Origin: Alkalispirochaeta sp.
GTDB lineage: Bacteria > Spirochaetota > Spirochaetia > DSM-27196 > Alkalispirochaetaceae
Direction: 5' to 3'
Assembly (NCBI GenBank): GCA_965601925.1
Contig: OZ271854.1
Coordinates: 3,936,001 to 4,000,000 of the forward strand
DNA: 64,000 bases
In this document: in pieces, positions 59,221 through 62,284 of the stretch
Position numbering within the stretch: the stretch's first letter is position 1
Layout: the number at the start of each line of letters is the position of its first letter
Notes under the pieces: generated by a model
Databases searched by the model: none
What the model was told of the DNA's origin: nothing
Seen by the model: only the letters and a program-made list of their open reading frames with translations
Made by a program: the position numbers and the translations under genes

Positions 59221-59258
59221 GTAATGGAGTAAGACGCACCTCGGTGCACCGCACCAAG

Positions 59259-59331
59259 GAACCAAAAGGGTTCTCAGCGTCTGATAAGAACGAAATCGGT
59301 TCCCGTTAATACATAGGAACAAAAATGGTTC
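59259..59331. repeat. three GAAC-N7-GTTC palindromes at 29-bp period
   Basis: 59259-59273, 59288-59302, 59317-59331. Confidence 0.9.
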
Positions 59332-59334
59332 CTG

Positions 59335-59363
59335 TTGAGCGATGACGTATCGCGTGATACGGT
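59335..59363 (+). promoter_or_regulatory. candidate sigma70 promoter of satD (leaderless)
   Basis: TTGAGC-17 nt-TACGGT with extended TG; GTG 6 nt later. Confidence 0.5.
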
Positions 59364-59369
59364 ATAGTA

Positions 59370-60020
59370 GTGAATGTAGTGGCGGTTATCGCAGACATCG
59401 TAAGTTCTCGCGATATCGTAGACAGAAGAGAATTCCAAAAGACGCTCAAATCGCACCTTCACGCGGTCAGCGAACGCGCCGGTGCATCGCTTCTCTCTCC
59501 GTACACCCTTACACTGGGAGACGAGTTCCAAGCAGTATACGGAGACTTCGATACGATATTCATCGATATCGTCACGATCATCGCAGCCCTATTCCCCGTA
59601 CGGTTGCGATTCGCCCTCGCTATCGGACCGCTCTCCACCGAGATCAACCGCGACGCGGCGCTCGAGATGGACGGACCGGCGTTTCATGATGCGCGCGCGT
59701 TGATGGAGGCCCTCAAACCGCAGGACCAGACGGTCATACGCATCGCGGCGGCCGATGTCACGCCCATCGATCTCATCAACGGATGTCTTAGGCTCCTATC
59801 GAATGCACTGGGAGCGTGGCGCGAGAACACCATTCGGCTGTTTCACGGGCTATTGACGGACGAATCGGTCGATACGTTGACACGGCGTGTGGGAATTTCC
59901 CGCCGCGGAGTCAACAAACACATCGCTTCGCACCACCTCCACGATTATGTAGACATAGTGCGGACGATACGGACCGAGTTGGAGCGGTACAACGTAGTGG
60001 GCATCGGGCGGACGGGATGA
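59370..60020 (+). CDS. SatD family protein with C-terminal HTH
   Basis: IADIVSSR, TLGDEFQ, MDGPAFHDAR; C-terminal VGISRRGVNKH. Confidence 0.85.
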   Translation: MNVVAVIADIVSSRDIVDRREFQKTLKSHLHAVSERAGASLLSPYTLTLGDEFQAVYGDFDTIFIDIVTIIAALFPVRLRFALAIGPLSTEINRDAALEMDGPAFHDARALMEALKPQDQTVIRIAAADVTPIDLINGCLRLLSNALGAWRENTIRLFHGLLTDESVDTLTRRVGISRRGVNKHIASHHLHDYVDIVRTIRTELERYNVVGIGRTG

Positions 60021-60766
60021 CGACCACCCACGTTTTCTACGCCCTCATACCGGCGATATTCCTATCGCAATACGTTCGTAGCCTCGACGGACGACGAATG
60101 GTCCGTCGCACGGTAGGCGCCGCGCTGTGTTACATGGCCGCGATCGCGGCGCCGCTGGCAACTCCCGCCAACTGGGTGGCCGTAACCGTAATGGCAGCCG
60201 CGATTATCGGCATCGATATAACGATGTTGCGCAGATCGACCAATCGCCACCTTTCCCGAACCGTGGTGCTGCTTTTCAATATCGCCGCAACGGTCGGCAT
60301 TGTCGGCAACGGCAGATGGATATCGGGATTCAACGCGAGCACGCAGCGTATTGCCGACGCGTTGGCACGATGGAACGTCATACTCCACCGTCTCGACGGC
60401 GCGGCCGTCCACTACCTGATCGTCGCGGTGGCGGGCCTTCTTATCGCCACGACCGAGATCAACCATCCCATCGCGCTCATTCTCAAACGATCGAGCCTTA
60501 TTCCGCGTACGCTTCCCGGCGCACAAACCGGCGTCGACGACACTCCGGCTCGGGGGCGCATGATCGGCGTGTCGGAACGGGGAATCGTTTTCGTATTTAC
60601 CCTCACCGGCAACCTATCGGCCATCGGCCTCGTTCTCGCCGCCAAAGCGTTTGCTCGCTTTCGACAACTGGACGATCGCGAATTTGCCGAATACATGTTG
60701 ATCGGGACGCTACTGTCCATCTCCGGCGCGATGGCGGTCGGGCTGATCATGCAATTCTTCGTGTAG
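60017..60766 (+). CDS. DUF3307-like multi-pass membrane protein
   Basis: GRMIGVSER, AAKAFARF, DREFAEYMLIGTLLS; ATGA overlap with satD. Confidence 0.75.
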   Translation: MTTTHVFYALIPAIFLSQYVRSLDGRRMVRRTVGAALCYMAAIAAPLATPANWVAVTVMAAAIIGIDITMLRRSTNRHLSRTVVLLFNIAATVGIVGNGRWISGFNASTQRIADALARWNVILHRLDGAAVHYLIVAVAGLLIATTEINHPIALILKRSSLIPRTLPGAQTGVDDTPARGRMIGVSERGIVFVFTLTGNLSAIGLVLAAKAFARFRQLDDREFAEYMLIGTLLSISGAMAVGLIMQFFV

Positions 60767-60838: not shown

Positions 60839-60894
60839 TTGACACATTCGGTATGATGCGGTATATTATTTTTCAGTTGCACATGTATGCAACT
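60839..60894 (+). promoter_or_regulatory. sigma70 promoter with downstream palindromic operator
   Basis: TTGACA-17-TATATT (60839-60867), then AGTTGCACATGTATGCAACT (60875-60894). Confidence 0.75.
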
Positions 60895-60925: not shown

Positions 60926-61210
60926 ATGTTTGACTATGAGCACTTTCTGAAGATCGACTACACGGATATTCACACACGTACCAACCTAAGTTCGAGGAGG
61001 CCCACTATGCACGACTACGAACACCTGGCCATGCATCGCGAACGCGTACGGGATCGAGCACGTTCAATACGGCGCAGTTCGGTCATACGTCCGTCTCTCG
61101 GTGCGGCGCGCCGTCTCATAGCATACATGGCGAGCGTGGCGCGGCGGATCGCGGAACATCTGAAAGTTGGACACAGCGGTTGCGTAGATCACGCCGTTCC
61201 GTGTAAATAG
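60926..61210 (+). CDS. small hypothetical protein with two in-frame starts
   Basis: GAGGAGG precedes ATG 60926 (MFDYEH) and ATG 61007 (MHDYEH). Confidence 0.55.
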   Translation: MFDYEHFLKIDYTDIHTRTNLSSRRPTMHDYEHLAMHRERVRDRARSIRRSSVIRPSLGAARRLIAYMASVARRIAEHLKVGHSGCVDHAVPCK

Positions 61211-61219
61211 ATACACGGG

Positions 61220-62284
61220 ATGCCGCTCTACACTCCAGGACCGTCGGATCACCTTTATCGGCTCACACGATTCGAAGAATCTGCGGTCTTGGAGATGCTT
61301 GAGAGCCTACTATCTCTCTTGGATCCCGTACGGAATGCCGACTGGAAACAGACCGTACGCGGCGAGTTGGGACAAAGATTTCTCGACCGCCTTGCGGATT
61401 TGTATCCGCACTTTCACGGCGGCGCCGATTTCATCGAGTTTGCCGTTGCCGGCGACGAGCAGCAGGACATCCCCTCCTTTTTTGATGCCGTAGAGGCGCA
61501 GTCGCCGCGCCGTTTTCTTTTTCTGGTTCTCGGACGTATGTATCCCGAGGAATCCCTTCCGGAGACGATATCGCGGGAGACGGTCGAGCGTTTTTTGGAA
61601 GAGCGAAAGACTCGCAACCATCATCAACACATAGGAGCCGACTTTGCGTGGTGCGACGACCTTCCGGGGCTGCAAAAGCGCGTCGTGGCCCTCTGGAGAG
61701 AGTACTATGAGGGCGTCTTTCGAGATCACATCGACGACGGAGCCGCGGAACGCACGGAGGCGATCACCGAAAAAAAGACTCTTTTGGAGAACGAGGGCGG
61801 CGTCGCGGTGCTGAAGGAGATTACCGGTATGGCGGAACTGCCGTCGGAGATGCCCGCCGGTTTCCCGTATACCAGCCTCGTATTCGTCCCGGTCCTCAGA
61901 ATCAATCGCGGCCATAAGATGTACTTCGGGTACGGAAAGGTCGTCGTTCTCTTCGACGCCCACCGTACACGGCGCCAGATAACCGCCCAACGGGAGCGAC
62001 GCGACCGATTGACCAGAGTCATGCGCGCCCTCGCCGATCCCGGCCGCCTGCGGATGCTCCAAGTAATTGCCGGCGACGACTACAAGTTCAACGGTCAGCG
62101 AGTCGCCAATTGGACCAACCTCTCAACCTCGGTGGTGAGTCGCCATCTCAAACAGCTGCGCGAGGCCGGACTCATCGAAGAGCACTCGCCGGACAATCGC
62201 AACGTCCTCTATCGGGTCAATACCGAAGCGATCGAAGAACTCTCAAACGAGTTATTGCGCTACGTAAAAGACCTTCAATTATAG
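61220..62284 (+). CDS. ArsR/SmtB family regulator with long N-terminal domain
   Basis: RALADPGRLRML...LSTSVVSRHLKQLREAGLI. Confidence 0.85.
   Translation: MPLYTPGPSDHLYRLTRFEESAVLEMLESLLSLLDPVRNADWKQTVRGELGQRFLDRLADLYPHFHGGADFIEFAVAGDEQQDIPSFFDAVEAQSPRRFLFLVLGRMYPEESLPETISRETVERFLEERKTRNHHQHIGADFAWCDDLPGLQKRVVALWREYYEGVFRDHIDDGAAERTEAITEKKTLLENEGGVAVLKEITGMAELPSEMPAGFPYTSLVFVPVLRINRGHKMYFGYGKVVVLFDAHRTRRQITAQRERRDRLTRVMRALADPGRLRMLQVIAGDDYKFNGQRVANWTNLSTSVVSRHLKQLREAGLIEEHSPDNRNVLYRVNTEAIEELSNELLRYVKDLQL

Follow-up and report, generated by a model that had tools for sequence, protein, structure and literature searches.

SatD and its His-less membrane partner in Alkalispirochaeta: a palm-domain protein that may control its own operon

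The satDE cassette and its operator array

The window, a stretch of 64,000 nucleotides from Alkalispirochaeta sp., carries satD followed by a gene for a satE-like membrane protein (Table 1). In an HMM search, the satD product matched PF16264 with 91.1 bits, where the curated cut-off is 29. The first-pass annotation had described satD as coupled by an ATGA overlap to a hydrophobic membrane-protein ORF, and this arrangement was confirmed. The motifs read in SatD were also found as described, namely DIVSS (D9), GDEF (G50-F53), RFALAIG (R80-G86) and GPAFHDAR (G102-R109). Neither frame is interrupted, and relatives at 78-82% identity are equal in length; thus, satD and its partner gene are not pseudogenes. 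The GC content of the cassette (0.57-0.60) is the same as that of the adjoining genes, and the host genome, a single 5.05-Mb contig, carries one satD.

Table 1. Positions of the satDE genes and of their upstream elements in the window
Feature	Position	Strand	Description
operator site 1	59258-59274		17-bp palindrome; centre at -104 nt from the start codon; 16.5 bits
operator site 2	59287-59303		centre at -75; 14.2 bits; 29 bp after site 1
operator site 3	59316-59332		centre at -46; 12.7 bits; 29 bp after site 2; separated by 2 nt from the inferred -35
inferred weak promoter	59335-59363	+	TTGAGC-17-TACGGT; ends 6 nt before the satD start codon
satD	59370-60020	+	216 aa; GTG start; PF16264 match
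satE-like membrane protein gene	60017-60766	+	249 aa; His-less subtype; N-terminal half of four helices is variable, C-terminal core is conserved

A branched-chain-type ABC transporter, a URO-D-family gene and a shikimate-kinase-like gene lie on the 5′ side of satDE. On the 3′ side, a separate strong promoter is followed by an ArsR-type regulator gene. In this region, positions 60839-60893 hold a near-consensus sigma-70 promoter (11/12) and then a perfect 6-6-6 inverted repeat (60876-60893). The repeat is probably the operator of the ArsR-type gene (61220-62284), a unit distinct from satDE. The short ORF before this gene (60927-61210) has two ribosome-binding sites and two similar peptide starts, MFDYEHF and MHDYEHL; it is possibly a duplicated leader or a small protein.

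To describe the upstream palindromes, we used a palindromic matrix made from 79 related loci (consensus TGAACC-N5-GGTTCA), from which the window and the duplicate locus L005 were excluded; the bit scores of the window sites in Table 1 come from this matrix. In the matrix scan, at least two sites were detected in 75 of the 79 upstream regions, against 2 of 1580 shuffles, and the spacing was 28 or 29 bp in 121 of 129 cases. The palindrome pattern occurs four times in the window (0.32 expected), a number reached in one of 100 shuffles. A site is located 39-51 nt before the start codon in 67 of the 79 loci, and 11-23 nt before it, where binding would block the promoter, in 48. In the window all three sites are upstream of the inferred -35. 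Since the promoter-overlapping site is absent there, SatD may act as an activator, as a repressor or as both.

A TTG/TAnnnT promoter ending 5-7 nt before the start codon, a geometry like that of the window, was present in 25 of the 79 loci. This short distance suggests that the satD mRNA is likely leaderless. A scan for consensus promoters did not flag the inferred satD promoter of the window. A perfect 6-4-6 palindrome (59346-59361) occupies the spacer and -10 of this promoter. As it is absent from the promoters of the nearest relatives, it is possibly a chance occurrence or the site of a second regulator. In another related locus (L215:1489-1917), five operator sites with 28-bp spacing precede a SatD frame of 143 aa, which lies 130 nt from the end of the locus sequence.

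SatD had also been credited with a C-terminal HTH. Helices are predicted at residues 152-187, and to that extent the assignment stands; in a sequence search of the PDB, SatD gave only weak profile matches, to HTHs of the GerE/LuxR type (E 0.15-0.9). The residues of the recognition helix were compared with the operator bases. Residue 179 is Arg in 40 loci, and 39 of these have G at operator position 2, which is found in 0 of the 32 others (agreement in 71 of 72 loci). Asn occupies position 182 in 18 loci, and 17 of these have a purine at operator position 1, as against 1 of the 54 others (agreement in 70 of 72). Columns 179 and 182 ranked top among all SatD columns for their operator bases, and the window obeys the pattern, with R179 and N182 beside G and a purine. 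By the sign test this covariation is not significant, as it comprises only 2-3 phylogenetically independent pairs.

The autoregulation that had been proposed from the upstream array is thus backed by the matrix sites and by the residue-base correspondence, and judging from these sequence features SatD very probably binds the array. In the host genome, no other spaced site pair was found before a gene, the sole extra pair being inside an ABC permease gene; therefore, the satDE operon is the only SatD target found. Of 57 loci, mostly of the His type, 53 gave no site with the matrix; other repeats were visible there by eye.

The SatD palm and the three forms of its partner

In the AlphaFold2 model of SatD (117 sequences, pLDDT 94.7), a linker helix connects a five-stranded palm (residues 1-128) to three short helices (152-187), which are followed by a last helix. 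In Foldseek, mycobacterial adenylyl cyclases came out on top (Rv1900c and Ma1120, E 4e-5), and the Pycsar cUMP synthase 7r65 was among the matches (E 4e-4). In a wider structure search, residues 1-128 were aligned with the class III cyclase 3et6 at Z 11.9 (rmsd 2.3, 119 aligned), with GTP cyclohydrolase III and GGDEF at Z 11.5 each, with Cas10 at Z 11.2, and with the Panoptes mCpol OptS (9mnr) at Z 10.9 (rmsd 2.5, 104/119 aligned). Both searches of the predicted model agree with the palm, cyclase-like fold that had been suggested from motifs, and on this model SatD belongs in the palm nucleotide-synthase superfamily. Because the scores for these five families tie (Z 10.9-11.9), the fold does not name the branch.

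The two metal-binding aspartates that had been pointed out are strongly conserved: among 160 other SatD sequences, D51 is present in all and D9 in 159. R109 was kept in 155 and K/R116 in 152 of the same 160 sequences, which cover all three partner types. For the other motifs, the comparison set comprised the 12 cyclases and 18 GGDEF domains of the host genome and 8 Cas10 palms, and registers were set by motif and secondary structure, not by residue-level structural alignment. The parallel with the class III motif GxxVNxAxR held only in part. G102 and A108 are in register, but the transition-state Asn is absent, with His, Tyr or Thr at 106, and the Arg comes one residue early, at +7 instead of +8. 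Position 47, three residues before the GD hairpin, corresponds by motif register to the base-selecting Lys/Glu; it is I, L or V in 159 of 160 SatD sequences, whereas the host genome's own cyclases carry Lys there. A profile-profile alignment of SatD reached no significance with the Cas10 palms or with the host's cyclases and GGDEF domains (1-6% probability or less), and this same alignment puts D9 and D51 in register with the cyclases.

SatD has a first strand and an Arg strand like those of class III enzymes, a GGDEF-like LGDEF hairpin, and a helix-end Lys116 as in GGDEF and Cas10. The signature of GGDEF diguanylate cyclases is incomplete in it: the first motif is DIVxS and not the guanine-binding DxDxFK..ND, and PF00990 gave no match; the mCpol profile PF18182 gave no match either. 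R19, Q23, R80 and D101 are conserved in SatD proteins beside long partners and variable beside short ones. From its residues SatD looks able to bind an NTP with two metals, and we consider such binding probable, yet it does not look like a canonical cNMP cyclase.

The partner had been noted as apparently lacking the His motifs of DUF3307, and this was verified: the positions of HxxxD/HxxxD/DQxxH hold A13, Q18, A60 and I64. The protein had no match to DUF3307 (PF11750) at E 0.1, and neither had any other protein of the host genome. Its C-terminal half is nevertheless common to DUF3307 proteins. We distinguished three partner forms, the His-motif DUF3307 form, the His-less form of the window and a core-only form, and one C-terminal core is found in all of them. 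Across 74 His-less, 67 His and 17 short sequences, G184, E187 and K210 are 100% conserved, and R188, R214 and E/D225 are conserved at 88-100%. The core also includes Y226, L228, G230 and S234, and the window partner carries the full pattern GxxER..K...R..[ED]Y.L.G...S. Tyr226 is near-invariant, being replaced by Phe in 18% of the short-type partners. The His/Asp motifs are near-invariant within the DUF3307 type, and the His-less form has conserved residues of its own (R81, E147 and N149). Since the three forms share one C-terminal core, it is safe to conclude that SatD and SatE, whatever their task, can do without the metal site and without the entire N-terminal half of the partner.

In the SatE model (pLDDT 91), the conserved core residues are on the last three helices, near the helix ends, and may form a cytoplasmic ligand pocket. 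Foldseek gave no match for this model at E 0.001. The best hits of the wider structure search were generic helical bundles (Z 8.1), a result that does not prove a new fold. No recognisable soluble nucleotide-sensor domain was found with Pfam, and no known nucleotide-binding effector family with Pfam and PADLOC. In the protein atlas, the whole partner matched unnamed clusters (0.91-0.96) and DUF3307 at 0.76, and the core alone had no named match. An NCBIfam search gave nothing useful. The predicted complex of two SatD and one SatE scored 0.00, where the mark is 0.32, which speaks neither for nor against such a complex.

Distribution and genomic neighbourhoods

Among the best 80 of 495 GTDB loci, a satE-like gene was present downstream of satD in 72, and none of these 72 showed more than one of the three His-motif patterns. 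The remaining eight comprise two that stop at a contig edge and six that have room but no detected partner, one of the six with a truncated SatD. A metagenome set of 80 loci was picked by the DUF3307-type partner. All three His patterns were present in 70 of them and satD was upstream in 69; ten of the other 11 had no room for it and one had room. A SatD-first sample was made of the best 30 of 62 matches from 301 Bacteroidota-phylum genomes and all 7 matches from 401 Pseudomonadota genomes. It contained 8 long His-less, 23 short core-only and 2 His-type partners, 2 loci without a partner and 2 that were not inspected. The short partners, mostly about 105-170 aa, were assigned by profile (17) or by eye (6). 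Because the best-scoring loci were taken, the His type is under-sampled.

satD and its partner are translationally coupled in most loci. In L019, L030, L032, L049, L052 and L066, the satE-like gene begins 120-240 nt from satD with no overlap. Five loci (L017, L023, L036, L042 and L217) have satD and operators and no detected partner. In L036 and L042, satD is directly followed by the deaminase gene that follows satE in sister genomes, which suggests a clean loss of satE. The Bacteroidota loci L220-L240 have core-only partners of about 105-125 aa beside SatD proteins mostly without R19, Q23, R80 and D101, and these pairs are the smallest form of the SatD-SatE system. One spirochaete chromosome carries two apparently identical cassettes about 217 kb apart (L004 and L005), with a Phd/YefM-type antitoxin gene upstream. 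Some candidates were rejected. The weak SatD matches L129 and L130 lie within frames of 1,020 aa, the first of which looks like an efflux-type transporter. In P0277, the long N-terminus is of low complexity and does not represent an informative fusion.

A quick tree built from 98 SatD rows placed the window within a clade of 43 rows (SH-aLRT 98) in which all partners are His-less. This clade spans Spirochaetota, Verrucomicrobiota, Bacteroidota, Ignavibacteriota, Calditrichota and Pseudomonadota. Partner type changes four times on the tree, as compared with 40.8 times when the labels are shuffled. This shows that partner type clusters on the SatD tree; co-evolution is not implied, because the sets were partly gathered by likeness to a type and the label of L127 comes from a fragment.

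Of 16 further genomes of the genus, 2 have SatD; in the phylum, it scored above the cut-off in 5 of 401 genomes. Orthologues of the upstream kinase gene were located in nine relatives, and none had satD within 1.5 kb. From the sparse occurrence in the genus and from these kinase loci, the cassette is accessory and has moved. The family as a whole comprises 2,271 clusters at 50% identity (E up to 1e-10) from bacteria and archaea. A search of 50,697 phage records gave no match, nor did one of the viral contigs, and four of 72,556 plasmids carried SatD, three of them haloarchaeal.

Neighbour genes at 79 loci were called with a simple script; 235 of the 239 cluster representatives within 3 kb were searched against Pfam, 70 were rescanned at a looser Pfam limit and 90 were compared with PADLOC. 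The neighbours are mostly metabolic, transport or unknown genes, and the cassette lies in conserved synteny in Opitutales, Ignavibacteria and Saccharospirillum. A dGTPase match is part of the conserved Opitutales block. This long-standing housekeeping synteny in Opitutales fits an ordinary accessory function as well as it fits addiction. A clear anti-phage system was found within 3 kb of two of the 79 loci, a raw count that implies neither enrichment nor depletion: RosmerTA (RmrT, RmrA) is downstream of the cassette at L048:10701-12615, and Wadjet JetD is upstream of it at L064:4979-6025. Toxin-antitoxin-type genes are within 3 kb in seven loci (L002, L004, L007, L008, L015, L034 and L038), and L008 also has a partial PDC-S01 match. 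No restriction-modification, CRISPR or CBASS genes were recognised among the 235 representatives. When satDE itself was compared with the PADLOC models, including those for PycC, CD-NTases and effectors, no family matched at E up to 1. Among these 79 loci, a defence-island setting is not the rule for satDE.

Genetics of homologues, interpretation and comparison with known systems

The SatD-SatE pair is catalogued but unstudied: no report of SatD chemistry or biochemical function was found in the literature searched, in which subscription journals are thinly covered; defence-prediction tables may mention SatD. Published transposon data exist for streptococcal homologues. PMC11323703 singles out satD as the only accessory gene that is essential in S. 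pyogenes, where it is present in 178 of 249 genomes. The operon consists of satD and one further gene, and all nine data sets class satD as essential and the other gene as non-essential; these data sets are not independent and include those of PMC4440532. In PMC4440532, the essential gene is satD (M5005_Spy_0891), and the satE that overlaps it (Spy_0892, 238 aa) is classed as non-essential; the text holds nothing on transposon polarity. For S. mutans, Table S2 of PMC5806208 gives observed/expected reads of 0.41, 0.21 and 0.21 for satD and of 1.46, 1.31 and 1.66 for satE (initial, BHI and FMC, respectively). The satD values miss the thresholds given there for essential and compromised genes (1% and 10%), and the neighbouring genes scatter widely. 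PMC10210942, PMC5786311 and PMC13492114 list sat genes in expression data, and the S. canis and M1UK supplements name none.

In these distant homologues the pattern is antitoxin-like, since satD, though accessory, is indispensable in the presence of a partner that can itself be lost, and it is opposite to that of Pycsar or CBASS. By analogy, it is rather likely that SatD restrains a harmful SatE. The pattern matches inhibitory signalling and the plain repression of a harmful protein alike.

As a tentative explanation, we propose that SatD regulates the operon in which it is encoded and produces a nucleotide by which SatE is held shut, in a Panoptes-like manner. The HTH of SatD would bind the three upstream palindromes, while the palm would make a nucleotide that keeps SatE inactive in the membrane. 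Loss of SatD would then harm the cell. On this view SatE could take different N-terminal halves or do without one. One possible trigger would be a fall in the signal, brought about by stress or, as in Panoptes, by phage proteins. The parts of this explanation differ in strength: that the palm turns its substrate over to a product is evenly balanced, that such a product acts on the conserved charged core of SatE is conceivable but somewhat doubtful, and a phage role for satDE is unlikely. We lean slightly towards inhibitory signalling because the enzyme-like residues are kept family-wide, because the invariant SatE residues resemble a phosphate-binding pocket, and because the window operators leave the promoter uncovered. 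Against it, the Tn-seq data would be explained equally by lost repression and over-production of SatE, the promoter-blocking position is occupied in 48 of the 79 loci, SatE has no recognisable soluble sensor domain, and six of 80 loci have satD and room but no partner.

A one-component regulator is a close though doubtful alternative. Here the palm would sense a nucleotide or another phosphate-rich metabolite and release no messenger, SatD would control satE transcription, and SatE would be a transporter or a membrane stress protein, harmful only if over-produced. The operator array, the covariation of HTH and bases, the frequent promoter-overlapping site, the missing class III specificity and transition-state residues and the finding of no target besides the own operon all suit such a regulator, and the same Tn-seq asymmetry and the housekeeping neighbourhoods would be expected. 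Against it stand the two-metal and phosphate-binding residues, which SatD proteins retain in full throughout the family. In addition, the window sites upstream of the -35 suit activation at least as well as repression, and the invariant SatE residues are charged and near helix ends, as they might be in a ligand pocket. Activation of the Pycsar or CBASS type, with a SatD cyclase turned on by infection and a product that makes SatE kill the cell, was the reading to which the first-pass annotation pointed, and we now regard it as improbable. The cyclase-like fold, the coupled membrane protein, the Foldseek match to 7r65, the patchy spread, and RosmerTA, JetD or toxin-antitoxin-type genes near some cassettes speak for it. 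However, an activating enzyme should be dispensable, whereas streptococcal satD cannot be lost; moreover, PADLOC gave no match, the class III residues are missing, the neighbours are of the housekeeping kind without restriction-modification, CRISPR or CBASS genes, and SatD gave no match in the phage records and viral contigs and was found on few plasmids.

In HEPN/MNT systems, antitoxins add AMP to a tyrosine of their toxin. SatD could similarly be a nucleotidyltransferase that modifies SatE directly, or a lipid or another substrate of SatE. The two-aspartate palm is a fold that polymerases also have, Tyr226 is near-invariant and the genes are coupled in most loci; nevertheless, the Phe found at 226 in part of the short-type partners, and closest folds that are cyclases and oligonucleotide synthases, leave this reading with a small probability. 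Smaller still is that of decay, in which SatE would be a metal-dependent membrane enzyme and the window copy its His-less remnant. The near-invariance of the His/Asp motifs in the DUF3307 type and their loss from the window partner would fit decay. Conservation largely refutes it: 72 of 80 related loci, from six phyla, carry an intact His-less form, which makes up the supported 43-row clade and has conserved residues of its own, and core-only partners exist as well.

If the antitoxin reading is true, it would explain why, of all accessory genes of S. pyogenes, satD alone is reported as essential (PMC11323703). If the palm makes an inhibitory nucleotide, bacterial nucleotide signalling would be extended by a signal and a membrane receptor that are both new, and by a fusion of synthase and regulator; if it only senses, SatD would still be a new kind of one-component regulator. 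The His-less subtype reveals which half of the partner matters. A bolder statement, to which we give little weight, is that SatD-SatE is a widespread, unrecognised membrane toxin silenced by a nucleotide, whose synthase is its own transcription factor and which fires when stress or phage counter-defence drains the nucleotide. The effector would then be a small helical membrane core, unmatched among the solved structures searched, with an optional sensor module of the His-metal or the His-less kind.

Of the known systems, the streptococcal sat operon (PF16264 with SatE/DUF3307, PF11750) shares SatD membership, the gene order, the overlap and the C-terminal core of the partner with the window cassette. 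The window partner has neither the DUF3307 domain nor its His/Asp motifs, and there is no ffh/ylxM context. Panoptes (OptS mCpol and OptE) is alike in its minimal two-aspartate palm and its two-gene operon, and also in that the enzyme is needed while the membrane partner is present, as Tn-seq of homologues suggests on the SatD side. As given in PMC12657218, OptS relies on Asp6 and Asp57, and OptE alone is toxic and blocks growth, with rescue only by catalytically active OptS. SatD differs from OptS in its fused HTH and operator array, in LGDEF, in the class III-like Arg strand and in not matching PF18182. SatE, in turn, is all-helical without a Pfam sensor domain, and a defence-island setting is not the rule for satDE.

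Class III cyclases, including the Pycsar PycC, resemble SatD as its top Foldseek matches, with D9 and D51 in register and the R80-x5-G86 strand. SatD differs from them in the lack of the base-selecting Lys and of Asn at 106, in the Arg that is one residue early, in a domain shorter by about 50 residues, and in Lys116, which is as in GGDEF and Cas10. Autoregulated toxin-antitoxin modules and the controller (C) proteins of restriction-modification systems are further systems with which satDE can be compared. Like these, satDE is a small accessory operon with phased palindromes at its own promoter and a likely leaderless mRNA, and its upstream gene is indispensable in homologues. In satDE, that upstream gene encodes an enzyme-like palm, and the toxicity of SatE is putative. 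If satDE is read as toxin-antitoxin-like, it would not be a classic phage-triggered alarm.
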